From: Paracoccaceae bacterium
GTDB lineage: Bacteria; Pseudomonadota; Alphaproteobacteria; Rhodobacterales; Rhodobacteraceae
Length of the DNA: 64,000 nucleotides
Direction of reading: 5' to 3'
NCBI GenBank assembly: GCA_041633555.1
Contig: JBFKFZ010000001.1
Span: forward strand, 20,259 to 84,258
Notes under the pieces: generated by a model
What the model saw: the letters and a program-made list of their open reading frames with translations, nothing else
What the model was told of the DNA's origin: nothing
Database searches by the model: none
Part shown: in pieces, positions 1,944-43,544 of the stretch
Numbering within the stretch: the first letter of the stretch is position 1
Layout: each line of letters begins with the position of its first letter
Program-made: the position numbers and the translations under genes

Positions 1944-1945
1944 GA

Positions 1946-12124: not shown

Positions 12125-12132
12125 GTCCAGCC

Positions 12133-14274: not shown

Positions 14275-14305
14275 GATGACCACCCTTTCCGACGCTTCGC
14301 TCCAA

Positions 14306-17249: not shown

Positions 17250-17270
17250 GCCTTTCTCAGGCCCCTCTAA

Positions 17271-26356: not shown

Positions 26357-26884
26357 TTACTCCGTCTCTTTTTGTTCTGACTTCTCGTCGGCCGTTTCCG
26401 CGGGCTTCTCGGCCAGGGTCGCAAGCAAAGCCGGATCCTGGATCACCTTGCGGATCAGTTCCTCTGCGCCGGTCTTGCCATCCATGTAGGTCATCAAGTT
26501 CGACAACTGGGTGCGCGCATCCAGCAGTTTCTTCAGCGGCTCCACCTTCGCGGCAATGGCTGCGGGACTGAAATCATCCATCGACTCGAAGGTGATATCG
26601 ACCGCCATGTTGCCTTCACCGGTCAGCGTGTTGGGCACAGAAAACGCAGCCCGGGGCTTCATCGACTTCATCCGCTCGTCGAAATTGTCGACGTCGATCT
26701 CCATGAACTTGCGGTCGGCAACCGAAGGCTGCGGCGCTTCCGACTTGCCCGCCAGGTCGGACATGACACCCATCACGAAGGGCAACTGGATCTTCTTTTC
26801 GGCCCCGTACAATTCCACATCATATTCGATCTGGACCCGTGGCGCACGGTTTCGCGCGATGAACTTCTGCGAACTTCTTGCCAT
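26357..26884 (-). CDS. tssB: T6SS contractile sheath small subunit TssB (VipA/ImpB)
   Basis: RVQIEYDVELYGAEKKIQLPFVMGVMSDLAG is the TssB signature. 3 nt upstream of tssC. Confidence 0.95.
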   Translation of the reverse strand: MARSSQKFIARNRAPRVQIEYDVELYGAEKKIQLPFVMGVMSDLAGKSEAPQPSVADRKFMEIDVDNFDERMKSMKPRAAFSVPNTLTGEGNMAVDITFESMDDFSPAAIAAKVEPLKKLLDARTQLSNLMTYMDGKTGAEELIRKVIQDPALLATLAEKPAETADEKSEQKETE

Positions 26885-26945
26885 CTCTTGCTACTCCTCA
26901 GCGATTGTCTTCAGGGCATTGCGGTCACGCGATGCAGGAATTCTC

Positions 26946-27974
26946 TTACTCATCGACCAGGCCTCCGATCAAATTGACATTCTCGATGCCGTTCGGGGCC
27001 ATATCCTTGACGATCGTCAGAAAATCAGCGCTGACCAGCCGTTTCGCCCGCGTCAAAAGGATCGGCACCGGGCTGGAGGGTTCTGCCCGCTTGTAATAGG
27101 CGATGATCCTGTCGAGCGCATTCTGCACATCATTGGGAGAGTTGATGGCCCCGACGCCACCGCCGGCCGCCTTCGCGCCGGCAGGGGCGGCTGCCGGTTC
27201 ACCGGCTTCGGCCCCGGCCTCGACCCCTTCGACTTCAACGGCATCACCGGCCACCGGCTCCAGCCGGGCGATGACCTGTCCCAGCAGCTTCATCAACGGG
27301 TCCAGTTCCGGCCCGCGCCCGGGAAGCATTTCGTCGAATTTGGCGTTGATCGCGCGTACGTTCTCGAGCGATTGACGGGCTCCGGTCAGTGCGGACTGCA
27401 GAAACTCCTGGGCCGTGTCCTGAAAGGCCGCCGCGATCGAGGAGGAGTCCGGAACTTCCTCGTCATCCTCTCCTGCGGTCGCCTCGCCCTCGGCGATGGC
27501 GATGTCGCGCAGGCTCATCCGCCCGAAGGTGCGGCTGTCGGTCAGCGGCGTGATCCTGATGCCGCGCAATATCGTATCGGGTGCGGCGAGCGACAGAATC
27601 ACGTTGATCCGCTGTGTCGGATCATCGTCATCATCGGCATCGAGCTGCGGGTGGCAGGTGTCCCAGTAGCGCTCCAGGCAGCCCCTGACATAGGCGGTTC
27701 CGTCGGCAAAGCCGGGAAAGCCCCGAAGACGCAATTCCGACATCGACAGAAACACGCCGGCCCGCAGGTCGTGGCTCTGTTCCAGCACCGCCAGAGCGGC
27801 CCCTGTCACTTCCTTGAAATCGGGATCTTCCGCGGCGATGATCTTGTCCCCGGCCTGACGCTCTTCGCCCGGCTGCGCCGCCAGTTCCAGGGTCATGAAG
27901 GCAAGATCGTAGACCATGTCCTCGCCACTTGGGTTTTCGTCGCCGTGGCTCTGAAGAAGTGCCTCTAGATCCAT
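26946..27974 (-). CDS. tssA: T6SS protein TssA (ImpA N-terminal domain family)
   Basis: ImpA_N-type start MDLEALLQSHGDENPSGEDMVYDLAFMTLELAAQ. First gene of the operon. Confidence 0.9.
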   Translation of the reverse strand: MDLEALLQSHGDENPSGEDMVYDLAFMTLELAAQPGEERQAGDKIIAAEDPDFKEVTGAALAVLEQSHDLRAGVFLSMSELRLRGFPGFADGTAYVRGCLERYWDTCHPQLDADDDDDPTQRINVILSLAAPDTILRGIRITPLTDSRTFGRMSLRDIAIAEGEATAGEDDEEVPDSSSIAAAFQDTAQEFLQSALTGARQSLENVRAINAKFDEMLPGRGPELDPLMKLLGQVIARLEPVAGDAVEVEGVEAGAEAGEPAAAPAGAKAAGGGVGAINSPNDVQNALDRIIAYYKRAEPSSPVPILLTRAKRLVSADFLTIVKDMAPNGIENVNLIGGLVDE

Positions 27975-29648: not shown

Positions 29649-30049
29649 AGCTGTGCCGGGTCCGATCGCAACAAAGATCCGAGACGATCATTGCGCTGAT
29701 CGACGTGGTTTTCTTTCTTCTCGTGTTCTTCATGCTGATCGGGCGGATGGACGCCACCGCTCCGTTCGAAGTACACCCCGCTACCGCGGTGACAGGCGCC
29801 GACCTGCCCGCAGGGGGCGCCACGCTCTCGATCAGTGCGGCGGGGGCGCTTGCGCTTGACGGCACGGCCATCGCCGCGCCCGACCTGATGCCAACGCTAG
29901 CAGTCATGCTTGCCGAAAGCCCCGACTTATTGATCCGGGTCAATGCCCACAGGGATGCGCAGCTGCACGGGATCCTGCCGCTGATCGCCGAGATCGAGCG
30001 CGCGGGCGCGCGCGACGTGGTGCTTGTCGTGACGCCGGAGAGATCCTGA
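29645..30049 (+). CDS. ExbD/TolR-family protein (copy 2)
   Basis: IIALIDVVFFLLVFFML. 134 aa. ATGA overlap with copy 1. Confidence 0.85.
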   Translation: MKLCRVRSQQRSETIIALIDVVFFLLVFFMLIGRMDATAPFEVHPATAVTGADLPAGGATLSISAAGALALDGTAIAAPDLMPTLAVMLAESPDLLIRVNAHRDAQLHGILPLIAEIERAGARDVVLVVTPERS

Positions 30050-31503
30050 TGCGCGGCGCGGCGATCTGGGCAATGGCGGGGCTCGGTTCTCTCCTGGCCC
30101 ATCTTGCCTTCTTCGCATTCCTGGACCTTGCGGTATCCCCCGACCCCCTGACCCCGCAGCAGCCGCCTGAAACCCGCATGTCGCTGGATGCCTATCAGGT
30201 CGACAAGCAGGATGCGGTAGCACAATCGACGGCGGGCGAGACGGCGGCCGAGCAGGACAATGCGGGCACAGCGCTAAGTCCCAGCGCCGTCCTACAGTCA
30301 AGGGCGAGGGGCCAGCCGGTCTTTGGCGAGACGATCACCGATGCCGCGCCTCAGGTCGCCGCCATCGCCCCGTCCCGTCCGACGGGCCAGATCGTTTCGG
30401 CTGCCCGCCCGTCCGAGCCCGTCATCCCGGCCGCAAGCCCCGTCGCAACCGCCCTCGCGTCAAGCCCGCCACCTGCGGCCCCGATCCAGGCCGCCGCCCT
30501 GCCCGCGCCGTCAACCAAGGCCGCCACCCAGCCGCTGCCGGCGGTCGCAGTCGATGCGGCGCAGGCCCTTGCCTCGGCGGTCGCTGGACTCCCGCTACCC
30601 GCGATCGCCGCCGAAACCCCACCGCCCGAGGCGCAGGCGATTGTCGGTGTGCCACCGCCCTCGGAAGCGACCACCGCTACATTGGCCTGGAATTTCGGCG
30701 AACGCATCGTCACCGACCCGGCTTCGCTGGCGGTGATCCAGGCCTTCATGGCGCCGGTTGACCTGGCGAGTTCCAACACCAATGCCGGCGATGTCAGGGA
30801 TGGGCTGGCGGCGATCCTCACCGGCGTCGACTGCGCCCGGTTGACCGCCACATTCGTTCCCGAGACCGGCGAACTGGAGCTGCGCGGCCATGTGCCGGAC
30901 CCGGCCATGCAGGCGCCGATCCTGAAGGCGCTGCGCGAGCAGATCGGTGACGGCATCCCGGTGACGGGCAATCTGCTGCACCTGCCGCACCCGCAATGCG
31001 GCGCGCTGAGCGGCATCGCTGAGGCCGGACTGCCGCAATCGACCGACCAGCTGACCAACGCCCTGCTGATCGGCAACAATGCGCAAGCCCGCGAATATGG
31101 CTTCACCGAGGGTCAGCGTCTGGCCTTCGACCTGACCGCGCCTGACTACGATGCGGTGGTCTACGTCGACTATTTTGATGCGGGTGGTCAGGTGATCCAC
31201 CTGATCCCGAACGAGACCGTGCCACTGACGCGGCATCCGGCGAAATCGGGTTTCGGAGTCGGCACCGACAGTGCCGGCGGCCCGAGCCTGAACATCACCA
31301 TCGGGCCGCCCTTCGGGCAGGAAATCGCGGTGGCCTTCGCGGCGTCAACGCCACTTTTCGAGGACCTGCGGCCACTAATCGAACCTGCCGAAACATACCT
31401 GGCGGAACTGAAGCAACGCGTGGCCGAAGCCCGCGCCGCCGATCCCGGCTTCAAGGGCGAATGGGTCTATTTCTTCATCACGACGTCGCCCGCGACCCAG
31501 TAG
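30049..31503 (+). CDS. TonB/TolA-like anchored protein: His-containing N-terminal TM helix, Ala/Pro-rich linker, non-TonB C-terminal periplasmic module
   Basis: TM helix GLGSLLAHLAFFAFL (TonB-like His), ~190 aa of Ala/Pro-rich spacer, C-terminal ~235 aa resembling the periplasmic end of the ppkA product. Start overlaps the exbD2 stop. Confidence 0.7.
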   Translation: MRGAAIWAMAGLGSLLAHLAFFAFLDLAVSPDPLTPQQPPETRMSLDAYQVDKQDAVAQSTAGETAAEQDNAGTALSPSAVLQSRARGQPVFGETITDAAPQVAAIAPSRPTGQIVSAARPSEPVIPAASPVATALASSPPPAAPIQAAALPAPSTKAATQPLPAVAVDAAQALASAVAGLPLPAIAAETPPPEAQAIVGVPPPSEATTATLAWNFGERIVTDPASLAVIQAFMAPVDLASSNTNAGDVRDGLAAILTGVDCARLTATFVPETGELELRGHVPDPAMQAPILKALREQIGDGIPVTGNLLHLPHPQCGALSGIAEAGLPQSTDQLTNALLIGNNAQAREYGFTEGQRLAFDLTAPDYDAVVYVDYFDAGGQVIHLIPNETVPLTRHPAKSGFGVGTDSAGGPSLNITIGPPFGQEIAVAFAASTPLFEDLRPLIEPAETYLAELKQRVAEARAADPGFKGEWVYFFITTSPATQ

Positions 31504-31505
31504 GA

Positions 31506-33056
31506 TTATTCGCAGCCGCCCTCAGCCCAACGCATGAGGCTATGCTTGAAACTGGCGCCATAGGGATGCGGCTTTTCCAAAGAACGGCTGGCCGAGGCTG
31601 ACAGATAAGTCGTGGCCTGCGTGCAGAGATCCTCGCGGGTCCATTCGTGGCAGTTCGCGCAGGTCTGGCCCTTCCAGAGTTCGTCCGGAATGCCCTCGAT
31701 CGGCGGGAAGATCGGCGATCCGGCGACCAGTTCCTCGATGCTCTTGCCGACAATCTCGGACGTGCCAGACTGAAGTGGTTGGGAAAACAGCACCGGTACG
31801 CCGTGCGGAGGGATCGCAACGGGTTCAATCTCTGGCTCCGGCGTGACGGGCGGTGCCGCAGCTTTGGTGGCCGCCGCTTCGGCCTGAGCCTGCAGGGTAC
31901 GGATCTCGAACCTTGCAAGTTCCGAAAAGACGCCTTCGGGGAATTCTGCCAGATAGTCCTCGTAATCGGCCAGTTGTCCCGTGCGGCGCGCCTGTTCGAT
32001 CAAGTCGGCCTCGCGGTCCGCAGGTGCGGTCGCCTCGGGCGAAGGCTCGGGTGCTGCCGCCACATCCGGCTCGGCAACCGGTTCCTGACCGGACTTCAGT
32101 TCTTCCTTCAGGACGTCGCTGAGCAGTGCTTGGGCGTCTTCTCTGTGCAGCCCATCGGGATAGGATCGCAGGAACAGGAGGATCTGAACCGGATCCCGCG
32201 ATAGCTCGACCGAACGCCAAAGCTGCTGCTCGGCGACTTCCTCCGGGGTCATTTGCCGGCCAGCCTTGAAGACGAAGTCGCTGGTCAACGACGATGTATC
32301 CCACGGCGTCTGCGCGCCGCCGGTTTCCGCGATCACCTTGACCCGCACGTTCTTGAACAGCTGCTCGATGGACAGGTCTTCGCTCATCATCTCGGCGGCC
32401 AATGCACTGGTGAAGGGGCTGTTGCCCTGCACACCGTCCAGCGCGACCGAGCCGGGCGCGGTGGCATAAGCAAGGTAGGTGCCGGTCGGGGCCTTCATCT
32501 CGGCCAGACCATTGTCGTTGAGCGACGGGATCGCTTCGAACGGATTGTTGCGGCAGGCATCGAGGATCACGATGTTGGTGCGGTTCCGCGCCGAGGCCAT
32601 CTGGCGCAGCACGGCCGAGGCTTCCAATGCTACAAGGTCCAGATCGGCGGCGTTGGTCAGGCGCGTGTCGACCGGCAAGAGGTAGTTCGCTCCAAACGAC
32701 TGCACCCCGTGGCCGGCATAATAGAAAAGCCCCACCGTATCGGATCCGCCTGCGCGAAGTTCACTGCCGAAGCCAGAGATCGCCCGCTTCAGTTCAACCT
32801 GCGGCGCATCCGTCAGCAACATGACCCGGAAACCCACATTTTCTAGGCTTTCAGCCATCAGCCTTGCATCATTCACCGGGTTGTCGAGCGGCTCAACCGC
32901 AGTATAGCCGCCATTGCCGATGACAAGTGCAATCCGCTCTTCTGCAACCGCCGGAAGCGTGAGCCACAGCAGTGCTGCAAGCCCGGTGGTTATGCGAAAG
33001 AACAAACTCACGCAGCCACTCTCGCCCGGCATGATGTCAGGATCGGGGCCGTCCAC
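31506..33056 (-). CDS. Exported caspase-family (peptidase C14) protein with a C-terminal CxxCH motif
   Basis: Signal/anchor LAALLWLTLPAVA. Caspase His/Cys dyad contexts FYYAGHG and VILDACRNNPF. Two ...FLRSYPDG.../...YLAEFPEG... helical motifs. CANCH encoded at 31647-31661. Confidence 0.85.
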   Translation of the reverse strand: MDGPDPDIMPGESGCVSLFFRITTGLAALLWLTLPAVAEERIALVIGNGGYTAVEPLDNPVNDARLMAESLENVGFRVMLLTDAPQVELKRAISGFGSELRAGGSDTVGLFYYAGHGVQSFGANYLLPVDTRLTNAADLDLVALEASAVLRQMASARNRTNIVILDACRNNPFEAIPSLNDNGLAEMKAPTGTYLAYATAPGSVALDGVQGNSPFTSALAAEMMSEDLSIEQLFKNVRVKVIAETGGAQTPWDTSSLTSDFVFKAGRQMTPEEVAEQQLWRSVELSRDPVQILLFLRSYPDGLHREDAQALLSDVLKEELKSGQEPVAEPDVAAAPEPSPEATAPADREADLIEQARRTGQLADYEDYLAEFPEGVFSELARFEIRTLQAQAEAAATKAAAPPVTPEPEIEPVAIPPHGVPVLFSQPLQSGTSEIVGKSIEELVAGSPIFPPIEGIPDELWKGQTCANCHEWTREDLCTQATTYLSASASRSLEKPHPYGASFKHSLMRWAEGGCE

Positions 33057-33149: not shown

Positions 33150-34232
33150 ATGTCTTTTTTTGGCCTTGGGAAGTTCATGATGCATTTCGTTCGCCTGTTC
33201 GCGTGTTTGTTCATCTGGTCGCTCGCGACCATGGCACCGGCTCAGGACAATCCGTTCGCCCCCGGCTGGGTGCTGCAGCCAGAGGCCTCATCGCTTCGCT
33301 TTCAGTCGGTGAAGAACCAGTCGAAGATCGAATCTTCCTCTTTCGCCACGATCTCTGGGGAGATCAATCCTTCGGGCAAGGCTGGCGTGAAGATCCTGCT
33401 GGATAGCGTCGACACGAAGATCGATCTGCGCAACGTCCGGATGCGCTTCCTGTTCTTCGAGACGTTCAAGTTCCCCGAAGCCACCATCAGCGTTCAACTC
33501 GATGCAGCCGATATCGCGGATCTGGCGCAAGTCAGGCGCAAGACGATGGTTCTGCCTTACACGATCACCCTGCACGGCATCACCAAGGCGCTGGAAGCCA
33601 ATCTTGCCCTGACCCTGATCGACGATGATCTGGTGGCGGTCTCGACCAACGAACCGATCACACTTGCGGTTGCCGACTTTGCCCTGACCGATGGTCTAGA
33701 GAAGCTCGAAGATGCCGCCAGCGTCGAGATCGTACCCTCGACTACTGTCACATTCGACTTCATTTTCAATCGTTTGCCTGGCGAAGCTGATGCAACTATT
33801 ACGGCGGCCACGACTCCTGAAAAGCCCGCCAGCGTCGCGCTTGAAGCCCAGGGTGATTTCTCGCTGGAAGCCTGCGTCGGTCGGTTCGAGATCCTGTCAC
33901 GTACCGGAAACATCTATTTCGGGCCCGGCTCTGCCCGGCTCACCGCCGATAGCTGGCCACTTCTTGATACGGTCGCCGACATCGTGCAGCGGTGCCCCGG
34001 CCTTGTCATTCAAGTGGGCGGCCATACCGACAGCCTTGGGCCTGACGATGCGAACCAGACCCTGTCCGAACGGCGTGCCGGCTCGGTCGTCACTTATCTC
34101 GCCGGGAAGGGCATCGCCGCTGACCGCGTGATTCCGGTCGGGTTCGGAGAGAAGTACCCTGTCGCCACGAATGATACTCCGAAGGGTCGCGGCCAGAACC
34201 GGCGGATCGAGTTTTCCGTCGGCAACAACTGA
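33150..34232 (+). CDS. Exported YceI-like domain fused to an OmpA/MotB peptidoglycan-binding domain
   Basis: Signal peptide (M)MHFVRLFACLFIWSLATMAPAQ. YceI-like LRFQSVKN...FATISGEI...LDSVDT. OmpA-like IYFGPGSARL...VGGHTDSLG...NRRIEFSV. The start could also be 33177/33180. Confidence 0.8.
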   Translation: MSFFGLGKFMMHFVRLFACLFIWSLATMAPAQDNPFAPGWVLQPEASSLRFQSVKNQSKIESSSFATISGEINPSGKAGVKILLDSVDTKIDLRNVRMRFLFFETFKFPEATISVQLDAADIADLAQVRRKTMVLPYTITLHGITKALEANLALTLIDDDLVAVSTNEPITLAVADFALTDGLEKLEDAASVEIVPSTTVTFDFIFNRLPGEADATITAATTPEKPASVALEAQGDFSLEACVGRFEILSRTGNIYFGPGSARLTADSWPLLDTVADIVQRCPGLVIQVGGHTDSLGPDDANQTLSERRAGSVVTYLAGKGIAADRVIPVGFGEKYPVATNDTPKGRGQNRRIEFSVGNN

Positions 34233-34300: not shown

Positions 34301-37186
34301 ATGAATAGGAGCGAGGAAGAAACCGACGAGCTGAAAAGCATGCTGGCCGTGGCGCGCAAGCGGGTGATCAATTTCGCGGTCTGCCTTGGTCAGAACCACG
34401 AAACCACGGTCTTTGCGATGCATCGGCGCAAATCGCCGGACGTTCTTGGCCGTCAGGTCAAACGCGAGGGCGAGACCACCAAGATCACGACGGGGCAGGT
34501 CCGGCTGAAGGCAAAAACACTGGCCCTGACCTGCATCGAACCGCCTCCGCCCGGCGCGGCGCGCCAGCTGCGGTTGTATTTTCGCGACTTCGGGCTGCCC
34601 TTGAAGATTGACCTCCTCGAGGCCGACGGCGCGGCACTGGAAAGCGACGGCGATGACGATGGCGTCGATGCCAAGGAGATGTTACGGCCCTCGGCCCCGA
34701 AGCCCGGCAAGAGGGCGGCGAAATGGAATGCCTTGCTGCCGGCCTTCGAGCAGGCCGTCGGCAGGGTCGTGGCCGCAAACGGCCCCAAGGCCGGGGCAAT
34801 CCAGTCGGCTTGGGAGGGTGCCAAAGCCGCAGCCGATAAGGGCAAGTACAAATCCGCTCTCGCGGCGGTCAAGAAGATCAAGCCACTGCTTAATGCAAGA
34901 CCCAAGCCAGAGAATGACGGTGCCGACGCAGATGATGGTGGATGGGCCCGAATCGAAGCCCGTCTGCAACAACGGCTGCAAACGGCGCTCGCCGCCTTCC
35001 CCGAGAAGGCGGACAAATGGTCGACCGCACTTGATATGGCCCGGCAGAAGGCCGCGGATGGCGACCTGAAGACCGCCGCGCTGATTGCCAGGAAGCTCTC
35101 TGACGCACTCGAAAAGGCGGGTCGGAACGGCGCAGACACTGCTCCTGCAGATACGCCTGACCTGTCCGCGTGGCATGTCGCGCACGATGCGCTGACAGAG
35201 CGGCTGCGCGGCATCGGTCGGGCCTTCGACACGACACGGCTTGCCAAGCTGCTGATCGCGGCGCGAATCGATCTCGAACGCTCGCCGGAAGAGCTGCCCA
35301 AGGCGCTCGCGATCGCCCAGGAGCTCGACACTGCACTGACCGCCGAGGGCATGGCCTATCTCAGATCTGCCAAGGCCGAGGCCACGTCCGCCCTCGCCAC
35401 CATCCAGACTTACCGGGGGGTTGACGATCATGCCAGTCGCCTCAAGGGCCGACTTTCGACGATGGACAAGGCTGCCAGCCGCACGCCGCCGGATTTCGAG
35501 GATATTCACGCAACTCATGCCGCGATCATGGCCGCCCGTGCCGACCTTCGACCGCTGTCGGACCGGTTCGAGGCCGACTACAACGAATGGATGACAAGGA
35601 AGGCCAACTGGTGCGACAAGCCACTGGCAAAGCTGAAGGATACGGTCGTCAGTGAGAGGAAAGGCAAGATCCAGGGCAACCTCGTCGAAGCTGAACGGTC
35701 GTTGGACCGGGGCGACCTGACCAGGGCGAAGCGGCTGATCACGGATGCGTACTGGGATATCAAAGCGGCGGAGGACATTGTCGAGTCGAAGACCAAGCTT
35801 GTCACAATGAAAAGCCAAGCCGAAGCCGCAATCGGCCAGATCACGGCGGCCTTGTTGGCAGACTACCCTTCCGAATGCGCGGCCCTGAAGGCTGATATCG
35901 ACCTGGCAGCGGCCAAGGAGGTCGCGGGCGATTACTATACCGCATCCCTCATTCTGGCGCCGCTGCCGGCCGCCATCGCGGAGCTATTGGCCCGCCCTCG
36001 CCGCGGAACGTTCTCCGAGCGGCTTGAGACCCTGCAGACTAAGGTCGGCGATGATGCCGAGTTGCAGGCCTTGATGGATCGGGCAAGGTCGGATGACCCG
36101 GTCAGGGCGCCCATGGCCCTTGATGAAGCCGAAGCCCATATTGCAGCTGCCGAGATCCGTGCCGCAATCGCGACAGGCAAAGCGCCGCCGCACGACCAAC
36201 TGAAAGATCTGGCAAGAAGCCTAGAAGGGCGGCGCCTTCTCGACGCGCTGATCTCCGAAGCTTCCGACGAAGCCGTGCCCGGGATCGCCGCTGCCCGGTT
36301 CGGCTTCGACACAAGCCCGGTCGAGCCGGACGGATCAGCACCGCCTGCCCGGGCCGCGGACATGCGAAAGCTCTGCCGGTTGCTTGCCGACGCGCCCGGC
36401 GAAACTGCGGTCCAGACCCGCGACATGCTGACGTTCAAACCAATCGATACGTCGCGAGATAAGGACGAAGGCCATTCGACGAGCCCCGGCCCGGTATTCC
36501 ATTCCGGTATCAGCGGTGCGGTCTACACGTCCGCCTACAATCCGCTGGACAAAGATCTGACCGCCTTTGGCGAAGCGGGCGGAACTGGCCATCTCGACCC
36601 CGATGATCTCGGCACGACGACGAGCAGCGGCGACAACCCGTCCTACGGGCGGTGGGCGGCGATGCACCAGCTTGGGCAGGCGATCAACCGCCGCAAGAAG
36701 TTCATGCAAACCAATGGCCACAAACAAGAATTCTCCGGCTGGCAGGATCATGGCAGGGATCTGTCCGACCTCGCCCGAACTGTCGCAGCGCATTTCGGGA
36801 TCGAGCGGGCCTTCGTCGAACGCGCCATGACAGGGATCAAGACCGAACTGCCCACGAAAGCCAGCCAGTACGATGCCGTGGAACAGACCGCCGAGCAATT
36901 ACAGGCTGGTCATGCCGACTTCCTCGACTGGCTCGGAATGGTGGGTCATGCCGGGCGGATCTGGACTTCTTCCAGCCGGACGGCCACTGCCAGAATCGGC
37001 GCGCGCGTGATCCAGGAAACGTCTCCGGGCCATTGGGTTTCATATGATCATGCGGCACGTGCTAAGGTCGTTTCGGCGGTACAGTTCCGGTCGCCCGGCG
37101 ATTGGTTCGCCGAGCTATACGCGGCCTATTTCACCAATGTCCTGCACCCGTCGCATCCGGCCCGGGACTGGTTGAGCAAGCTGTGA
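34301..37186 (+). CDS. Large hypothetical cytoplasmic protein (961 aa): N-terminal ~100-aa domain shared with the 42088 ORF, Ala-rich ~73-aa helical repeats, C-terminal globular region
   Basis: Long uninterrupted ORF with no TM segment or signal peptide. Recurring xGD(Y/L)xxAxxL motifs. C-terminus contains MHQLGQ and DWFAELYAAYF. Confidence 0.7.
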   Translation: MNRSEEETDELKSMLAVARKRVINFAVCLGQNHETTVFAMHRRKSPDVLGRQVKREGETTKITTGQVRLKAKTLALTCIEPPPPGAARQLRLYFRDFGLPLKIDLLEADGAALESDGDDDGVDAKEMLRPSAPKPGKRAAKWNALLPAFEQAVGRVVAANGPKAGAIQSAWEGAKAAADKGKYKSALAAVKKIKPLLNARPKPENDGADADDGGWARIEARLQQRLQTALAAFPEKADKWSTALDMARQKAADGDLKTAALIARKLSDALEKAGRNGADTAPADTPDLSAWHVAHDALTERLRGIGRAFDTTRLAKLLIAARIDLERSPEELPKALAIAQELDTALTAEGMAYLRSAKAEATSALATIQTYRGVDDHASRLKGRLSTMDKAASRTPPDFEDIHATHAAIMAARADLRPLSDRFEADYNEWMTRKANWCDKPLAKLKDTVVSERKGKIQGNLVEAERSLDRGDLTRAKRLITDAYWDIKAAEDIVESKTKLVTMKSQAEAAIGQITAALLADYPSECAALKADIDLAAAKEVAGDYYTASLILAPLPAAIAELLARPRRGTFSERLETLQTKVGDDAELQALMDRARSDDPVRAPMALDEAEAHIAAAEIRAAIATGKAPPHDQLKDLARSLEGRRLLDALISEASDEAVPGIAAARFGFDTSPVEPDGSAPPARAADMRKLCRLLADAPGETAVQTRDMLTFKPIDTSRDKDEGHSTSPGPVFHSGISGAVYTSAYNPLDKDLTAFGEAGGTGHLDPDDLGTTTSSGDNPSYGRWAAMHQLGQAINRRKKFMQTNGHKQEFSGWQDHGRDLSDLARTVAAHFGIERAFVERAMTGIKTELPTKASQYDAVEQTAEQLQAGHADFLDWLGMVGHAGRIWTSSSRTATARIGARVIQETSPGHWVSYDHAARAKVVSAVQFRSPGDWFAELYAAYFTNVLHPSHPARDWLSKL

Positions 37187-37207
37187 CCCCGACAAAAGGC
37201 GTTGCCG

Positions 37208-37888
37208 ATGTCCCTTTCTGACGCGCAGGATTGTCCCTGCCCTGCTTGCGGAGCCAGTGTACCGGTGGCGTACTATGCCAGCCTGGGTCCCGAGGCGCAG
37301 GAAGAGATTCTCATCGACCGGCTGCAATGCACGACCTGCCCGGATTGCGGGCAGGACTTTCGCACCGAACCTGCATTCACCTATCTCGACCCCGAGGCCG
37401 GCCTCTGGATTGCCGCCCGCCCCGCCGAGGCGCTGGCCGACTGGCAACAGGAAGAAGCCGGCGCACTCGCCGCCTTCGAAGAAATCTACGGCGCCGGCGC
37501 GCCCAAGGACGTGCAAGAAATTGGCGCAGACCTTGCCTCCCGGCTGACCTTCGGCTGGCCAGCATTACGTGAGAAGCTGATGATCGCGGAGCATAGCCTG
37601 AGCGACGTGGCGATTGAGTTGACCAAGCTCGCTATCCTGCGCAACCGGCCCGGCAATCCCATCGCAGAAGGCGTCGAGCTTCGGCTGCTTGATGTTCGTG
37701 GACCCAATCTGGAATTCGGGTGGCTCACCCGCCGTGGGGGGAAACAGCTCGATGTTTTCGAAGCACAGAGAAGGCTTTACGAGTCGATCTTGAAAGATCC
37801 GGCCTGGCAGGAAGCGGCAACCCGGTTGCCCGAGAGAGGGCTGGTCGATCTGCAGCGGCTGTTCATTGCACCTGCAGGACCAACCTGA
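37208..37888 (+). CDS. CpXC-domain (zinc-ribbon) protein
   Basis: Two Cys pairs, CPCPACG and CTTCPDCG, spaced as in CpXC domains. ATG at 37208 (the track start at 37202 is TTG). Confidence 0.7.
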   Translation: MSLSDAQDCPCPACGASVPVAYYASLGPEAQEEILIDRLQCTTCPDCGQDFRTEPAFTYLDPEAGLWIAARPAEALADWQQEEAGALAAFEEIYGAGAPKDVQEIGADLASRLTFGWPALREKLMIAEHSLSDVAIELTKLAILRNRPGNPIAEGVELRLLDVRGPNLEFGWLTRRGGKQLDVFEAQRRLYESILKDPAWQEAATRLPERGLVDLQRLFIAPAGPT

Positions 37889-37930
37889 CGATCGGCCCAG
37901 CCGGACGATCTCTTGCAAGACCAGCTGGCG

Positions 37931-40900
37931 TCAGTCGTCGTCGCCCAGGATCGCGTCTGCCGCATCAAGCGCTTCGTCAGCCAGATCGATCGCCTCCTCG
38001 ACGGCATCGGTCAACGGATGCGATTTCGCGACACCTTTCGCCAGTTCAACGGCCGCATCCAGCGGATCGCCGTCAAGCAACTCCTCACCGACATTGATCG
38101 CCGTTTCGACGGCGTTGCCCGCCTTCTTGGCGACATAATCCTTGGCCTTCTCGTAGGCCTTGTCCTTGACGAAATCGATGACCTTGTCACTCAGGTCGTC
38201 AGCCTTATCGCCGGTCCGCTCCAGAATGCCATCATCGGTTTCGTCGGCCTTCTCGTCCTCGATCTTCTCTTCCTCAGCCAGAATCGCTTCGACATCGGTG
38301 CGCAGCTTCGCCAGGCCGTCCAACGCCTTCTCGTAGTTCTTGGCGTCCGCGGCTTCCTGTGCGTCGGCCAGCATTTCGGGCAGCTTCTTGACCCGCTCAT
38401 CGAGTGACTTCTCCTTCACCTCGCAGGCCTGCTTGTACTGGGTCTCCAGCCCGTTCCAGCGCTCGTCATAGCGGACCTTCGCCTGTTCCAGCTTGTCCTC
38501 GGCCCGGTCGAATTCGGTCAGCGCCTTCTCGACCTTCTCAGCCTTGTGGACAGCGCCCTCGTAATCCTCGTTCCCAGCCGTGTCCCTCATCGCGCCATAA
38601 GCATCGATCACCTCCTCCAACTCGTCCGTCAGGACCGAGGCGAATTCGGAATCGTTGGCCTTTTCGACCCGCGGTGTCAGCGACCCGACAAGACCTTCAT
38701 ATTCGGCCTTGTGCTCGCCGGTCGTCATCAGCGCGTCTTCGAGGTCTTCGAGCGCATCGAGAAGATCCTGCACCGTCTCTTCGATCTCGTCGATATCGTT
38801 GCCCTTGATCGCATCCTCGACCTTGTCCTTGGCGGACTTCGCGTCGTCATACTCATCCTCAGCACGATCCTCGGCGTCGCCGGGCTGGCTGTTGAACCGG
38901 TCGATGGCGGCCTTGGCTGCGGCTTTGGCCGAGGACTCGCGCTTGGTCAGCTCGACCCACTTGCCGTCGAACTTCTTGATCTCGGCCAGAAGCGCCTTCG
39001 CCTTGACCGAAGCATCGCCATACCTTTCTTCCCCGGCGAGCGACTCCATGGCGTCCTTGAGCTTGGTCAGATCCTCGAACGGATCCTCCAGATCCTCATA
39101 CTCGGTCGACTTCTGCCGCGCCGCGCCATAGGCCTCAAGCGCCATGTCGCGCTGGATCTCGTAAGCCTCTTTCTGGTCGCCGAATTCATCGACCTTCTTC
39201 ATGTAAGTGTCGATCAGTTCCTTGACCCCGTCGGCAGCTTTCACGGCCTTGACGAATTCATGCTCGTCGCCAAGATTGACCATCGCGTCATATGCGGTGA
39301 TCACCTTGTCCGCGGCAGCCTGAGCCTCTTCGATGTCATTCTTCTTGATGATCTCGATCTTGCCCAGCATGTCCTTGTGGAGCTTCTCGTAGACGGGCTC
39401 GTTCTTGGCCAGCTCGGCGTTCAGGGCAATTGCATCCGTGACCATCTTCTCAAGCTTGGTCATCTTGGCGAGCGCCTCTTTAAGCCACGCCTTGTTCGCC
39501 TCTTCGGTCATCTTGCCGTAGAGCTCCTCGATCGCTTCTCGATCGTCCTTCAACGACAGGTAGGTAAAGGCCCGCACCTGTTCGAGCCGCGGTTTGATTA
39601 CGTCGTGGCGCCGGGTGTAGTCCTTGAGCATCGCCTCGAGCTGCGCGAACTCATCGAGCGGTCCGACGAGTGCTGTCGCCTTCTGCAACGCGGTGGCGAA
39701 GTCGGTCTCGTTGGCGGCGGAAAGCATCTCGTCGCGCAACTCTATGATTGGCGTCTTTTTCGACTCGAGTTCCGCATGGCTGCAGCTCTCAACATCCGCG
39801 ATCTTGTCCTTGATCTTCTCGTAAAGCGCTTCGTACTGGTTCTGCAGGTTGATCAGATTACCAAGCTGTGCGTCGAGATCGTTGAGCATCCGCTCGATCG
39901 CGTTTATGTGGGTCAACGCAAGACGGAAGTCGGTGGCCGTCGCGGCGGCCTCCATCTCGTCGCGAAGCCCTGTCAGGGCCGCCCGTTCATCCTCCAGTTC
40001 CGCGTAATCGCTTTGCATCGAGCCATCGAACCGCGAGATAACGGCAGGCAGTCGCGTTTCGTACTCAGTCCGCGCGGCATCCAGTTCCGTCAGCGTGGTC
40101 TCGATGATCGTGATCTTTTTCTCGATCTCTTCCAGAAGCGTTAGCGCGGCGGGGTAGTCGCCGTTCCCGGCCGCTGTCTCCATCTCAGTACGCATCGCGA
40201 TGATGGCTTCGTGCTCGGCGTCGAGTTCCGCATATTCGCACTGTGCCACAGCGTCGAATCGGACCAGCACGCCTGCCAGCATCGCGTCGTAATCCAGCTT
40301 CGCCTGCTCGATTTCCGCAAACCGCGCCTCGTATTCATCGAGTTTGCCCGCAGCCCGGTTCAGCATGTCGATGGCCGCGGCATAGTCGCCCGCCGCGCCA
40401 GCATCGGCAGCCGCCTGCTGATCACCGGCAATCTCCAGCGAAAGGGCTTCGACCGGCAGGTAGTTGCAGACTGCGGCATCGCCGAAGCGCGGTTCCATTT
40501 CGGCAGAAAGACGTTCGAATTCCTGCCCCAGACGGGCCGTTTCGTAGGCTATCTTGTAGGCATCCAGAAGTGGCACCAGCTTGTCCATCTCTGTCAGGGC
40601 AGCCTCGAAGTCCGCGCCGGCAGCGGCCGCCTCCATTGCGGTCTTGACGCTGTCGAGCTCGGCTTGCTGAGGCTCCAGCGCCGGGAACTCGCTGACCAAC
40701 GCCTCGGCCAGTTCGGACTGGATGGCGGGCAGCCGCGACTCGTAGAGGGCGCGCGCGTCGGCGGACTTGGCGAACTCGGCCAGAAAGATGTCGATCTTGC
40801 CCGAGATATCCGCGATCAGCGGAATCGCCGTTTCGTAGTCGAAGGCAGCGGCAGCAGCTTCGGCCTGGTCCTGCAACGCCAGGATCTCTTCCTGCATCGG

Positions 40901-41638
40901 TGTGAGATCGGGGAACTCGCATTGCGCGCATTGCTGCAGCCGCGGGGCGAGCGCCGCCCACTGCGCATCGAAGTCCGCTTTCTGCTGTTCGACCGTGGCG
41001 ATCATCTGTTCGGCGCTGTCAAGTTCGCCGACGGCCACGCGCAGAGTGGCAAGAGCGGTCACATAGTCGAGCGCCGTGACAGAGGCGTCGATCGCGTCGA
41101 TATTAGTGGTGATCTGGTTCAACTGTCCGGCGATGGCCTCGGTCTGAGTGGGGGCTGCTCTGGCCGTCTGCAGCCGCGTCTCGAATGTCGCCCGAAGCAG
41201 ATCATACTCGACCTTGGCCGCAACCTGGGTCAAATAGACGGCATAGACCGGCTCCATGCTGACCTGCGCCTGGTCCAGCAGCGCCGTGGCGTCGGGCCAA
41301 CGCTGGTCGGCCACCGCATCGTCGATCTGAACCACCTCTCCTTCAAGGATCGCCGCATCGGCATGGCCCCAGGCGCGCAGGTCATCGAGCTGGAACTTCA
41401 GCGTCGCGAAGTCGCGCCCGCGCCCTTGCCAGATCCGCTTGTTCTCCTCGATTTCCTTGCGCAGCTTCGCAATGACGTCTTTCAGCTGGGTTATCTTGCT
41501 GCCAATCTGGTCCAGCTGCTTCTGCTCGCTCGCGTCAATCCCATCCGCCGCAAACTCGCGACGCATGGATTTTTCCTTTGCGACCAGTTTCAGGTTCTCT
41601 TTCTCGGCTGTTTCGATTTTCTCAAGTTTGACGTTCAC
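37931..41638 (-). CDS. Giant acidic helical-repeat protein (1235 aa, about 14 repeats of ~76 aa)
   Basis: GTG start with a GGGAGG Shine-Dalgarno 7 nt upstream. Periodic anchor motif every ~76 residues. No TM segment or signal peptide. Confidence 0.8.
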   Translation of the reverse strand: MNVKLEKIETAEKENLKLVAKEKSMRREFAADGIDASEQKQLDQIGSKITQLKDVIAKLRKEIEENKRIWQGRGRDFATLKFQLDDLRAWGHADAAILEGEVVQIDDAVADQRWPDATALLDQAQVSMEPVYAVYLTQVAAKVEYDLLRATFETRLQTARAAPTQTEAIAGQLNQITTNIDAIDASVTALDYVTALATLRVAVGELDSAEQMIATVEQQKADFDAQWAALAPRLQQCAQCEFPDLTPMQEEILALQDQAEAAAAAFDYETAIPLIADISGKIDIFLAEFAKSADARALYESRLPAIQSELAEALVSEFPALEPQQAELDSVKTAMEAAAAGADFEAALTEMDKLVPLLDAYKIAYETARLGQEFERLSAEMEPRFGDAAVCNYLPVEALSLEIAGDQQAAADAGAAGDYAAAIDMLNRAAGKLDEYEARFAEIEQAKLDYDAMLAGVLVRFDAVAQCEYAELDAEHEAIIAMRTEMETAAGNGDYPAALTLLEEIEKKITIIETTLTELDAARTEYETRLPAVISRFDGSMQSDYAELEDERAALTGLRDEMEAAATATDFRLALTHINAIERMLNDLDAQLGNLINLQNQYEALYEKIKDKIADVESCSHAELESKKTPIIELRDEMLSAANETDFATALQKATALVGPLDEFAQLEAMLKDYTRRHDVIKPRLEQVRAFTYLSLKDDREAIEELYGKMTEEANKAWLKEALAKMTKLEKMVTDAIALNAELAKNEPVYEKLHKDMLGKIEIIKKNDIEEAQAAADKVITAYDAMVNLGDEHEFVKAVKAADGVKELIDTYMKKVDEFGDQKEAYEIQRDMALEAYGAARQKSTEYEDLEDPFEDLTKLKDAMESLAGEERYGDASVKAKALLAEIKKFDGKWVELTKRESSAKAAAKAAIDRFNSQPGDAEDRAEDEYDDAKSAKDKVEDAIKGNDIDEIEETVQDLLDALEDLEDALMTTGEHKAEYEGLVGSLTPRVEKANDSEFASVLTDELEEVIDAYGAMRDTAGNEDYEGAVHKAEKVEKALTEFDRAEDKLEQAKVRYDERWNGLETQYKQACEVKEKSLDERVKKLPEMLADAQEAADAKNYEKALDGLAKLRTDVEAILAEEEKIEDEKADETDDGILERTGDKADDLSDKVIDFVKDKAYEKAKDYVAKKAGNAVETAINVGEELLDGDPLDAAVELAKGVAKSHPLTDAVEEAIDLADEALDAADAILGDDD
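38266..41341 (-). repeat. Protein-level tandem repeat array (~228-nt period, degenerate at DNA level) inside the 1235-aa ORF
   Basis: Anchors at residues ~115,191,267,343,418,494,570,646,718,795,873,949,1026,1102 (e.g. AFDYETAI, GADFEAAL, AGDYAAAI, NGDYPAAL, ATDFRLAL, ETDFATAL, NEDYEGAV, AKNYEKAL). Confidence 0.65.
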
Positions 41639-42087
41639 AATTGGTCCTCCCGTCGGGTTCTTCAGGCCGGCGCCGAACTCCTGATTGGCAAAGCGCCGAT
41701 GCTAATGGCTGTTGGCTCCGCGCAAGGCGGGATTCTCTATTTCCTCAGGTCTGTCATCTTCGCCGCGCCCGGAAATTGGGCCTGATCAGCAGCGTGCAAC
41801 ATCGGCATTCGGCGCCAGGGAAATTGGTCTTCGCGCCCGCTGTGAGCGGTGCCACCCGAACTTTTCAATCCGGTCAATATGCCTCAAAACCGCTGTTCAT
41901 TCAATGCAGGGATACCCGACCTTGGTCGAAACCGGGTTTGAGAATAGGCTGGTTTCGGCTATAAAGGCTGCATTGGATATTTCAGGCGCCGGGCTTTCGG
42001 CGCTTCAATCATTGAGCACTCGAAACGGCATCCGACAATCGTATCTAAGTGACATTTCGGATGTTTTTCGTCAACGAGGAGGCTGGC

Positions 42088-43029
42088 ATGGCCAAGAAGA
42101 AATCCCCGGCAGAACTGAAAGAGGAAGGCGTCGCACTGGGCGAGAAGATCGCGCAGGCGCGCAAGAAACCCTATAAGTTCGCTCTTTCGATCGGCAAGGA
42201 AGGCCTGGTTCTAGAAACCGACCTGAAGAAATCGCCCGACATTCTTTGGCGTAACGCCAAGAAGGCCGGCGGCGGCCCGAAAGGCGCGATGGGCATGATG
42301 AGCGTCAAGGGCAAGATCATCGAACTGGACTGCACGGATGACAGCGCGCCACAGAACCTGCCGAAACTCGCCAAGAAATTTTTTGCCGAGCGTGGCCAGC
42401 CCTACAAATTCGTGATCAAGACCCCGGCCGGCGAACTGTCGGATGACGACAACGAGGAGGAAGAAGAACTGCAGATGGCATCGCCGCCGGAGGAGGAAGA
42501 AGAAGAACTCCAGATGGCCGTGCCTCCACGTGGAGACGCACCGCCACCGGAAGAAACCGCCCCGCCCTCTGCCAGCGATGAGGACGCGGTCGACGAGGAA
42601 ACCCGTGAAGCCGTCGAGGAAGTCACCGGGGAAAGCCCTCAGGAGCAGACAGAGGCGTCCGAAGATAGCGGCGAAGATGCAGACGACGATACCGAGGATG
42701 CACTGCGCGAGGTGTTGCAGAAGGAATTCGAGGGTCTCTCCGGCGATATCGAGGCAGCGAGGCAGGGCACCAATCCCGGAATGGTCAAGAAAACCGACGC
42801 TTTGGTCGAGATGTTTGGCAAGCAGATCGGTGGCGATCTGAAGAAGTCGGCCTCGGTCCTGTCGCTATTGAAAGCGACCCTGAAAGAGGCTGGAGGCGGA
42901 GCTGAAGCGACCCCGGCAGCCGGCCAGGCCGAGGGCGGCGCCCCGGATCCCGCAGCTGCAGAGGCCCGCAAATCCCAGCTTGAAGAGCTGGAAAAAGGCG
43001 TTGATGCCTTGCTGGCTGAGTTCGCCTGA
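42088..43029 (+). CDS. Hypothetical acidic protein (313 aa) with an N-terminal domain paralogous to that of the 961-aa protein
   Basis: GAGGAGG Shine-Dalgarno before the ATG at 42088. ARKKPYKFALSIGKEG...KKSPDIL...GKIIELDC...FFAERGQPYKFVI aligns to ARKRVINFAVCLGQNH...RKSPDVL...AKTLALTC...YFRDFGLPLKIDL. Confidence 0.7.
   Translation: MAKKKSPAELKEEGVALGEKIAQARKKPYKFALSIGKEGLVLETDLKKSPDILWRNAKKAGGGPKGAMGMMSVKGKIIELDCTDDSAPQNLPKLAKKFFAERGQPYKFVIKTPAGELSDDDNEEEEELQMASPPEEEEEELQMAVPPRGDAPPPEETAPPSASDEDAVDEETREAVEEVTGESPQEQTEASEDSGEDADDDTEDALREVLQKEFEGLSGDIEAARQGTNPGMVKKTDALVEMFGKQIGGDLKKSASVLSLLKATLKEAGGGAEATPAAGQAEGGAPDPAAAEARKSQLEELEKGVDALLAEFA
42454..42528 (+). repeat. In-frame tandem duplication (36 + 39 nt) encoding EEEEELQMASPP / EEEEEELQMAVPP
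   Basis: Direct reading of nt 42454-42489 against 42490-42528. Confidence 0.8.
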
Positions 43030-43097
43030 TGACAGGAACTGGCAGCGGGCAATGCTCGCTGCCCCGCGTAGTATGACTTGAACTTTCGGAGGATATC

Positions 43098-43544
43098 ATG
43101 CCGGAACCGGATGCAAAGGAAGAGGGCAAAAAGATAGAGGCGGCCAAGAAGGGGATTCAGAGCGAGGTGAAGAAGCTCGCCCAGAAGACCAAGAAGAAGG
43201 CCGATGAAGCCCGCGAACTGCTCGAGGAGAAGAAGGAAAAGAAGAAGCCCAGCACGCCCGACGAGAAGAAGCGCGCCAAGGAAGTCGACAAGAAACTGAA
43301 GGATATCCAGAAGATCTATGCGAAAGAGGCAGACGCGACCTCGCAGCGGATCAGCAAGATGCTGCAGGAATATGCGCCCGACAACAAGGATGCCCTGCCC
43401 GCCTGGCAGAAGGGCATGGATCGCTGGTACATTGATATCCTGAACAAGGAACCCGGCTTCGATATCGGCGGTGGCGTCAGGGCGAACGGCGACATCTCGA
43501 TCAAGGACAAGAAGGCGAAGATCGACTTCTCCTGGAAGTTTTAG
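43098..43544 (+). CDS. Hypothetical Lys/Glu-rich protein (148 aa)
   Basis: GGAGGA Shine-Dalgarno before the ATG. Charged helical N-terminal two thirds, small C-terminal beta-like region (GFDIGGGVRANGDISIKDKKAKIDFSWKF). Confidence 0.6.
   Translation: MPEPDAKEEGKKIEAAKKGIQSEVKKLAQKTKKKADEARELLEEKKEKKKPSTPDEKKRAKEVDKKLKDIQKIYAKEADATSQRISKMLQEYAPDNKDALPAWQKGMDRWYIDILNKEPGFDIGGGVRANGDISIKDKKAKIDFSWKF

Follow-up and report, generated by a model that had tools for sequence, protein, structure and literature searches.

The window examined here is a stretch of 64,000 nucleotides (nt) from a Paracoccaceae bacterium (GenBank assembly GCA_041633555.1, contig JBFKFZ010000001.1, positions 20,259 to 84,258 of the forward strand). 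It has a guanine and cytosine (GC) content of approximately 62%. It encodes a type VI secretion system (T6SS) and, near it, five proteins termed P1 to P5. P1 and P2 were found to form a copy of an undescribed, widespread and obligate two-gene cassette, in which a long protein ending in a zincin-type metalloprotease domain is paired with a CpXC zinc-ribbon protein. The copy in the window is an unusual, catalytically dead variant. As judged from sequence, P1 and CpXC may be a T6SS-linked cargo-plus-partner cassette that is non-catalytic here, a reading that is held tentatively and falls a little short of an even chance. Related loci are referred to by their L numbers.

The zincin-CpXC cassette and its variant in the window

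The C-terminal 300 amino acids (aa) of P1 were identified as a degenerate zinc-metalloprotease domain by alignment to homologues carrying the HExxH motif. This domain was overlooked in the preliminary description of the region. Four distant relatives from a word-index search align over the last 300 or so residues of P1 and carry HExxH together with an invariant EWFAELY helix. The word-index search gave eight homologues in all. The resulting picture of P1 as a near-orphan was discarded after a full HMMER profile search with the C-terminal region, which matched 1,193 clusters at 50% identity (E ≤ 1e-3), 402 of them at E ≤ 1e-30. The zincin domain was C-terminal in nearly every match listed, in proteins of 250 to 2,000 aa. 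The family proteins are long and soluble and end in a zincin domain of about 300 aa of the form HExxH...EWFAELY. HExxH was present in 151 of 155 family members as HE(V/I/L/A)(G/A)H, and the WFAELY-type Glu helix was present in all. An independent metagenome sample gave HExxH in 80 of 81 zincins. No signal-peptide-like N-terminus was seen in any of 107 full-length members. The cassette was found in Rhodobacterales, Burkholderiales (Piscinibacter and Caldimonas), Planctomycetota, Myxococcota and Verrucomicrobiota, and also on plasmids. No relative of it was found in viral contigs.

Only the window clade carries HQ(L/I)G(Q/R/K) in place of HExxH. The motif reads H789-Q-L-G-Q793 in the window P1, so that it has lost the catalytic Glu and the second of the His ligands but has kept the Glu helix further downstream. 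Glu938 of WFAELY occupies an invariant column of the alignment and lies on helix 293-305 of the AlphaFold2 (AF2) model of the zincin domain (predicted local distance difference test score (pLDDT) 79.5, predicted template modelling score 0.78). One locus, L074, was considered as a second degenerate zincin and rejected as a high-scoring segment pair artefact, as its open reading frame (ORF) reads HELGH.

No zincin relative was found when the AF2 model was compared to the PDB by Foldseek (best match E = 2.5). The zincin domain had no significant match in Pfam or NCBIfam. The Pfam family ATLF was matched once, below the cut-off, in one of eight members (E = 0.019). The zincin profile had no significant match among PDB sequences, where CapP was the sole sub-threshold zincin-like entry (E = 1.7).

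A CpXC gene lies directly downstream of the zincin gene, on the same strand, in 81 of 81 loci, these being the ones among 86 genome zincin loci with at least 700 nt of downstream DNA. The gap between the two genes is 13 to 147 nt with a median of 28 nt. The pairing also holds in the other direction. A set of 120 metagenome contigs was chosen solely by a degenerate DNA pattern for VNADRRPDLR, and 119 of these encode this CpXC subfamily. A zincin gene was directly upstream of CpXC in all 75 motif-picked contigs with at least 700 nt of upstream sequence. Other gene families recur in at most 9 of 87 cassette neighborhoods. Genomes often carry two to five deep paralogous cassettes, and zincin and CpXC identities co-vary among the paralogue pairs within a genome (r = 0.77, n = 19).

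Canonical CpXC partners contain a near-invariant S(V/I)NADRRPDLR between two CPxC knuckles and score 69 to 89 bits against the Pfam CpXC model. The window CpXC has the knuckles CPCPAC and CTTCPDC and scores 59.7 bits (cut-off 25.4). A four-residue deletion with substitutions in the NADRRPDLR segment was found in exactly the five loci with a dead zincin (the window, L001, L005, L008, and L009), and the loss of this segment accounts for window-clade scores of around 60 bits, 10 to 30 bits below those of the canonical partners. This joint loss is suggestive of a link between the conserved core of CpXC and the catalytic function of the zincin. Nothing relevant was found in the literature on CpXC (PF14353).

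Selection was estimated from orthologues in four to five related genomes as the ratio of nonsynonymous to synonymous substitution rates (dN/dS). All five genes gave values of 0.05 to 0.35 at a synonymous rate (dS) of 0.5 to 1.5, and they are therefore regarded as real and constrained. The values for P1 were 0.10 to 0.20 in its N-terminal domain (NTD), which is its most constrained part, 0.23 to 0.35 in the repeat region and 0.16 to 0.34 in the zincin domain. CpXC gave 0.13 to 0.25, P3 0.13 to 0.19 and P4 0.09 to 0.18. P5 is the most conserved of the five (0.05 to 0.07), with orthologues in L006, L008, and L009 that are 85 to 95% identical. The continued constraint on a dead zincin domain marks P1, on the evidence of its sequence, as a conserved and maintained pseudo-protease. 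With its catalytic motif destroyed, P1 cannot act as an enzymatic toxin.

The destroyed motif and the deleted CpXC segment would also be expected if P1 and CpXC were decaying, functionless remnants of a once-active cassette. This is very improbable, as five genomes carry full-length ORFs, dN/dS is 0.10 to 0.35 at dS of 0.5 to 1.3, and the NTD is more constrained than the rest of P1. Since the catalytic residues are lost and yet both genes are under purifying selection, the pair in the window would have to act without proteolysis.

The preliminary description had also reported codon usage richer in A and T in parts of the five-gene region. This was not reproduced. GC at third codon positions (GC3) was 0.69 to 0.82 in the five genes compared to 0.60 to 0.83 in the flanks. 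GAA/(GAA+GAG) was 0.43 compared to 0.44, and AAA/(AAA+AAG) was 0.23 in both. The lower total GC of P3 to P5 is due to second codon positions, that is, to a protein composition rich in D, E and K. No sign of foreign origin or recent acquisition was obtained from this codon-usage computation, in which neither GC3 nor the synonymous codon ratios deviated from the flanks.

Two other copies of the cassette were recorded. L006 carries a second, intact cassette at 1-4924, consisting of a 1,664-aa zincin protein with HEVGH and a CpXC protein, approximately 25 kb from the dead P1-CpXC pair. L001 and L006 belong to one contig of the metagenome-assembled genome (MAG) closest to the window, so live and dead versions coexist in one genome. 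The cultured strain Leisingera sp. NJS204, which would be convenient for experiments, carries a copy (L091, 395-6681) on the 44-kb plasmid NZ_CP035424.1, where the 1,848-aa zincin protein WP_129373484.1 is followed by a gene annotated as "CpXC domain-containing protein". The T6SS of this strain is on a different plasmid, NZ_CP035419.1.

Two modules and a common N-terminal domain

The features of the locus and of the neighboring T6SS cluster are given in Table 1. The five ORFs, their strands and coordinates and the 449 nt gap had been described before and were all reproduced from the ORFs and translations. The earlier statement that the five proteins have no transmembrane helix or signal peptide also held (maximum Kyte-Doolittle 19-residue mean 1.54). 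CpXC had been named as the sole recognizable family. That assignment was borne out, and the other four proteins had no significant match in Pfam, NCBIfam, PADLOC or the PDB sequences. PADLOC returned only coiled-coil noise matches for P3 and P5 and no defense-system component among the five proteins. The neighboring caspase matches a generic caspase model in PADLOC. Searches of PDB sequences, both by single protein and by profile, gave nothing meaningful for the zincin, the NTD, CpXC, P3 or P5. Rfam gave nothing in the part of the window from 33 to 45 kb.

Table 1. Positions of the five genes, their parts and the neighboring T6SS genes in the window
Feature	Position	Strand	Description or basis
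P1	34301-37186	+	961 aa; NTD, helical repeats and C-terminal degenerate zincin domain
NTD of P1, residues 1-115	34301..34645	+	Alpha/beta domain also in P4 and many family members
P1 helical-repeat region, about residues 130-640	34688..36220	+	Matches to P3-repeat hidden Markov model (HMM)
P1 C-terminal pseudo-zincin domain, residues 660-961	36278..37183	+	Alignment with HExxH homologues
HQLGQ, P1 residues 789-793	36665..36679	+	Position of the family HExxH zinc-binding/catalytic motif
WFAELY helix, P1 residues 935-940	37103..37120	+	Glu938 kept; presumed third zinc ligand of the family
P2, CpXC zinc-ribbon protein	37208-37888	+	226 aa; Pfam PF14353, E = 3.5e-16
P3	37931-41638	-	1235 aa; acidic helical-repeat protein, convergent with CpXC
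P3 repeats, about 12 tandem 76-aa units, residues 142-1130	38249..41215	-	Anchor spacing, HMM self-search
P3-P4 divergent intergenic region	41639-42087	.	449 nt; conserved blocks
P4	42088-43029	+	313 aa; NTD (residues ~11-115), acidic linker, short C-terminal helical region
P5	43098-43544	+	148 aa; Lys-rich helical N-terminus and small C-terminal domain
Complete T6SS cluster, threonine-phosphorylation-regulated	33-27974	- except PpkA 33-1943 (+)	Pfam, BLASTP
PAAR	11211-11513	-	Pfam
DUF6931	11513-12136	-	Pfam
VgrG	12133-14412	-	Pfam
tssB	26357-26884	-	BLASTP, 85% identical to Qingshengfaniella alkalisoli TssB
tssA	26946-27974	-	BLASTP, 51% identical to Qingshengfaniella alkalisoli TssA
DUF4384 protein	30049-31503	+	Pfam
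Caspase-family protein	31506-33056	-	Pfam
YceI-OmpA protein	33150-34232	+	Pfam; directly upstream of P1

The five genes had been described as a single island. They are two separate modules that are neighbors in one clade, module A being P1 and CpXC (34301-37888) and module B being P3, P4, and P5. The two were separated because the MAG contig of L001 and L006 has an insert of approximately 13 kb between CpXC and P3 and because the modules also occur apart, P1-CpXC being self-contained across several phyla. Module B lies outside the universal cassette. It was seen in genomes of the Rhodobacterales/Paracoccaceae type alone, also without module A or a T6SS and with caspase-Sel1 genes as frequent neighbors. 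P3 had 8 homologues, all Paracoccaceae-like. P4 had 40 homologue clusters, and those named by source were from Rhodobacterales or unclassified Pseudomonadota except for one labelled Candidatus Krumholzibacteriia. P5 was found in the window clade alone, together with P4. P3 and P4(-P5) keep their divergent arrangement in L006, L007, L008, and L009. L007 has P3 and P4 beside suf genes and lacks P1, CpXC, and P5. In L088, which lacks P3, the neighbors of the P4 homologue include caspase-Sel1 and glycosyltransferase genes. Neither locus has module A or a T6SS within 10 kb.

P3 is made up of approximately 12 tandem helical repeats of 76 aa with an xGD(Y/F)xxAL anchor at a spacing of 75 to 76 residues. 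A self-search with the P3-repeat HMM recovered 12 units, 5 of them outside the seed. The preliminary description had proposed a helical repeat of about 75 aa as common to several of the proteins. This stands for P3. Its extension to P1 is weakly supported, by a match that is modest but reproducible. The HMM matched P1 at residues 141-199 (15.3 bits) and 215-273 (11.8 bits), compared to a maximum of 9.0 in 200 shuffles. The same positions were matched in P1 orthologues, and P1 paralogues gave 18 to 25 bits. P3 aligned to a P1 paralogue by BLASTP at 1e-7. Direct BLASTP of P1 against P3 gave no match.

The domain common to the N-termini of P1 and P4 was confirmed by BLASTP (E = 3e-10, 32% over 99 aa). 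The NTD is approximately 100 to 110 aa in length and alpha/beta in an AF2 model (pLDDT 87.5). No family match was obtained for it in Pfam, NCBIfam, PADLOC or the PDB. Gelsolin/ADF-like Foldseek matches to the model were rejected (best E = 0.03, template modelling score ≤ 0.42). Jackhmmer over the collected sequences gave 61 NTD domains, both in zincin proteins and in separate proteins. In zincin proteins the NTD occupies residues 1-110 in Rhodobacterales and approximately 110-230 elsewhere, and it is sometimes duplicated. It is also found in the P4 family, in T6SS-embedded ORFs of L064 and L084 and in a gene convergent to CpXC in L004. In L064, L084, L158, and the window, genes for NTD proteins cluster close to those of the T6SS. 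L090 encodes a 1187-aa protein (15880-19443, minus strand) in which the NTD and an acidic linker are fused to a region of approximately 940 aa that has no assigned function. The same region is a separate gene in L088 (6652-9702, minus strand), divergent from a P4-like NTD protein (10001-10858, plus strand). The fusion in one locus and the split genes in the other link this region to the NTD protein.

The preliminary description had offered an alternative in which all five genes form one independent scaffold-type system, with the helical-repeat proteins P1 and P3 assisted by the small partners CpXC, P4, and P5. The genes are adjacent and in the same order in the window, L008, L009, and probably L005. 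The NTD is common to P1 and P4, the repeat type is common to P1 and P3, all five genes are under purifying selection, and P3 is extremely acidic (net charge -134) while P5 is basic. This explanation is nevertheless unlikely. The genes are separable, as seen in the insert of L001/L006 and in L007 and L088, which lack P1 and CpXC. P1-CpXC occurs without P3 or P5 in approximately 200 loci across phyla, and P4-like NTD proteins lie beside the cassette in few loci outside the window clade (L004 and L084).

The locus could also be a caspase-centred conflict island of Paracoccaceae, with the caspase, Sel1/TPR and DUF4384 proteins as effectors, the NTD proteins as adaptors or substrates and the T6SS as a mere neighbor. 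The DUF4384, caspase and YceI/OmpA genes are directly upstream of P1 in every window-clade genome, in synteny with L001, L005, L008, and L009. Flanking caspase-Sel1 genes are found at P3/P4 in L006 and at P4 in L088, and a caspase-family gene adjoins tssA in Q. alkalisoli. Little probability was given to this idea, since no caspase gene was present in L007 or in any cassette locus beyond the window clade, and no link between caspase and NTD was found at the domain level.

Two further observations were made on this region. Peptidase_C14 caspase-family genes, often with Sel1/TPR or beside DUF4384, recur at this T6SS subtype and at P3/P4 homologues in Paracoccaceae (window 30049-33056; L092 16109-18130; L006 4946-7996 and 13817-16747; L088 3240-6149 and 11416-13848; and the gene right beside tssA in Q. 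alkalisoli). The P3-P4 intergenic region has a mean identity of approximately 65% across the window, L006, L007, L008, and L009, with conserved blocks that include CAATATGCCTCAAAA, GAAATTGGGC and TATAAAG. It had no Rfam match and no sigma-70-like promoter match. A hairpin with a T-run just before the P4 ribosome-binding site was rejected as no better than shuffles (z = -0.65).

Linkage of the cassette to type VI secretion

The T6SS cluster of the window has the order PpkA, PppA, TssM, TssL, TssK, Fha, PAAR, DUF6931, VgrG and a VipA/VipB-fusion-like gene, followed by an Ion_trans channel gene, ClpV, TssG, TssF, TssE, TagJ, Hcp, TssC, TssB and TssA. A gene of no assigned family and then ExbD lie between TssA and the DUF4384 gene. 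A 485-aa plus-strand ORF at 26511-27968 was rejected as spurious antisense over tssB and tssA.

Of 206 cassette loci, 82 with a length of 10 kb or more, 10 contain T6SS genes. L008 and L009 among these 10 are syntenic with the window, and the other eight are independent (L028, L042, L064, L084, L158, L175, L190, and L207). In the Planctomycetota loci L042 and L028 the genes VgrG-DUF6931-PAAR are followed by zincin-CpXC on one strand, and the same trio is found in the T6SS of the window. L084 has, within a full T6SS cluster, TssF-TssG-ClpV-zincin-CpXC, a convergent NTD protein, a VipA/VipB-fusion-like gene and TssK-L-M. L064 has ClpV, NTD proteins, zincin-CpXC, a VipAB-like gene and VgrG. ClpV begins 37 nt after CpXC in L190. 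In L158 an NTD protein and a cassette with intact HEVGH adjoin TssA-B-C, and the TssC of this locus is 84 to 85% identical to that of the window. The zincins of L028, L042, L064, L084, and the window clade share just 24 to 54% identity with each other. By a rough estimate, well under 1% of random genes would have a T6SS cluster within 10 kb. The association with the T6SS therefore looks real, though it is a minority pattern. Five of five Roseobacter strains with a plasmid-borne cassette have a T6SS of the window type on another plasmid. This co-occurrence adds little, as most Leisingera have such a T6SS anyway. The preliminary description had proposed the five-gene unit as a set of T6SS substrates. 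The unit did not stand, and the substrate idea finds partial support in P1-CpXC, relatives of which lie in or beside a T6SS in at least eight loci outside the window clade.

The first gene of the cassette encodes a soluble protein with no signal peptide that carries an optional NTD, a variable number of helical repeats of about 76 aa and a C-terminal gluzincin-type domain of about 300 aa. The second encodes a cognate CpXC zinc ribbon that co-diverges with the zincin protein. In the cargo-plus-partner reading the helical array may bind a target, the zincin would cleave the target so bound, and CpXC, as either an inhibitor or a chaperone, could bind the zincin inside the producer cell. The pair of the window lineage would form a binding-only protein complex. 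Module B probably acts with or alongside module A in the window clade by way of the common NTD.

A broader form of this reading is possible but doubtful. T6SS substrates would then include a new class, made up of zincin-CpXC with the NTD, that extends over several phyla and is tied to the T6SS subtype with the extra, sheath-like VipA/VipB-fusion gene. In Rhodobacterales the NTD would serve as a new domain for delivery, and the window clade would have converted the pair to a non-catalytic, binding-only secreted complex or a spike-associated adaptor working with P4 and P3. A new delivery domain had been put forward in the preliminary description, and the NTD does behave as a modular tag at the N-terminal end of different C-terminal regions.

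Several results weigh against the cargo-plus-partner reading. In 196 of the 206 cassette loci no T6SS gene was found in the available sequence, so the homologues are far from always T6SS-linked, and the Leisingera cassette is on a 44-kb plasmid that has no T6SS. Homologues of P3 and P4 occur beside suf genes or caspase-Sel1 genes without a T6SS, which counts against a T6SS island. No fusion of family members to PAAR, VgrG or Rhs was seen, and none of the known adaptor genes DUF4123, DUF1795 and DUF2169 was noted at the cassette loci. The zincin assignment is motif-based, and significant sequence or fold similarity to described peptidase families was not found. The NTD is missing from the Planctomycetota copies that adjoin VgrG-PAAR and therefore cannot be a universal loading signal. 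Orphan CpXC genes were not seen in any of the 75 motif-picked contigs. Immunity genes do not usually behave in this way, and a two-subunit complex is the better fit. The window clade keeps CpXC beside a dead enzyme, as a pure toxin-antidote reading does not predict. The correlated loss of the catalytic site and the CpXC segment is just suggestive because it is a single evolutionary event. Five of five Roseobacter strains with a plasmid-borne cassette have a T6SS of the window type on another plasmid. This co-occurrence adds little, as most Leisingera have such a T6SS anyway.

Some of these results would be accounted for if the cassette were a cytoplasmic module independent of the T6SS, that is, a protease under regulation, with a zinc ribbon as its regulator or substrate, active for example in stress signalling or in an undescribed conflict or abortive-infection system. 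The occasional presence in T6SS loci would then reflect that cassette and T6SS each belong to mobile accessory DNA. The available flanks are free of T6SS genes in approximately 95% of loci. The one-to-one linkage holds both ways and leaves no partner orphaned, much as for two subunits of a single machine, and the pair occurs on plasmids and near transposases and as several deep paralogues per genome. However, it had no PADLOC match and is absent from viral contigs. Independent cases embedded in a T6SS, numbering about 8 in some 80 long loci, are far above the random expectation of under 1% from the same rough estimate. The sites are also typical of cargo genes, between T6SS core genes in L084 and L190 and after VgrG-DUF6931-PAAR in L042 and L028. 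This explanation stays alive as a minority possibility, since no orphan CpXC gene was found, the dead enzyme still has its CpXC and many copies are distant from a T6SS.

Two components of the T6SS cluster were also recorded. The VipA/VipB-fusion-like gene (14602-16383, minus strand) encodes an extra protein of 593 aa with VipA-like and VipB-like parts that is far below the curated TssC cut-off. It adjoins the Ion_trans channel gene (16380-17249, minus strand). Homologues with 45 to 50% identity are directly beside zincin-CpXC in L064 (~11795-12850), L084 (12794-14599) and L175 (9136-10581), and a weaker homologue (29%) is in L042 (11895-12344). Q. alkalisoli has a 1,063-aa version with an ion transporter at the same position. 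The DUF6931 gene lies between VgrG and PAAR in one alphaproteobacterium, the window (11513-12136, minus strand), and in two Planctomycetota (L042 4520-5155 and L028 2150-2887). Its product is a candidate conserved spike adaptor or chaperone. Nothing relevant was found in the literature on DUF6931.

Significance and comparison with known systems

At least 1,193 protein clusters in five bacterial groups share an unannotated metalloprotease domain that is always paired with CpXC. CpXC, a domain of unknown function, thereby gains its first firm functional context. If the T6SS link is true, environmental and marine bacteria, for which few T6SS substrates are known, would gain a new family of effectors and perhaps also a new delivery domain. 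The window lineage is a natural "catalytic-dead" experiment, in which joint loss under continued selection points to a second, non-proteolytic role. Cultured carriers make the question testable, among them Leisingera spp., Phaeobacter sp. G2, Cribrihabitans marinus, Seohaeicola spp., and Piscinibacter spp.

Metallopeptidase effectors of the T6SS include the C-terminal domain of VgrG2b (PMC6899460) and Rhs-M91 (PMC13556075). The cassette resembles T6SS effector-immunity pairs in that a large protein with no signal peptide and a C-terminal HExxH is encoded right before a small gene on the same strand. Some copies follow VgrG/PAAR in T6SS clusters, and several divergent paralogues are found per genome. 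Unlike T6SS effectors, the cassette zincin has no VgrG, PAAR or Rhs fusion and lies outside the described peptidase families. Its conserved part is the C-terminal domain, with no variable toxin tip. Unlike immunity genes, CpXC was never encountered as an orphan, and this partner is a zinc ribbon under strong conservation. T6SS genes are distant from most copies of the cassette, and the one in the window is catalytically dead.

Among N-terminal delivery or marker domains of the T6SS, RIX is an Arg-rich motif of 55 residues that is limited to Vibrionaceae and Moritellaceae (PMC10435454). WHIX is a cavity domain of several hundred residues, covering residues 148-699 of Awe1 (PMC12135965), and PIX is an N-terminal T6SS delivery/marker domain (10.1101/2023.07.16.549128). 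Like MIX, FIX, RIX, PIX, and WHIX, the NTD is at or near the N-terminus and is combined with differing C-terminal regions (repeats and zincin, the P4 tail, and the ~940 aa of L090). It is set apart from this group by size, composition and taxonomy, with size and composition compared to RIX and WHIX. Pfam gave no family for P1 or P4.

The cassette zincins also recall other metalloproteases. The motif of anthrax lethal factor (M34) is HEFGHAVDD ... EFFAEAF. The family motif HE(V/I)GHAVDD ... GEWFAELY resembles it, which is taken as a lead and not as a test in relating the family to lethal factor and to MtfA (M90). Unlike in these two proteins, the spacing between HExxH and the Glu helix is approximately 145 residues, which is much longer than that known for both. 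No significant sequence or fold match was obtained, and the window protein has no HExxH.

ImmA/IrrE-ImmR and CapP-CapH are similar to the cassette in that a zinc protease gene is beside a gene for a small partner that the protease may bind or cleave. There is no statistical similarity between these systems and the cassette. The partner in the cassette is a CpXC zinc ribbon and not a helix-turn-helix repressor, and the protease is the tip of a helical-repeat protein of 1,000 to 2,000 aa.

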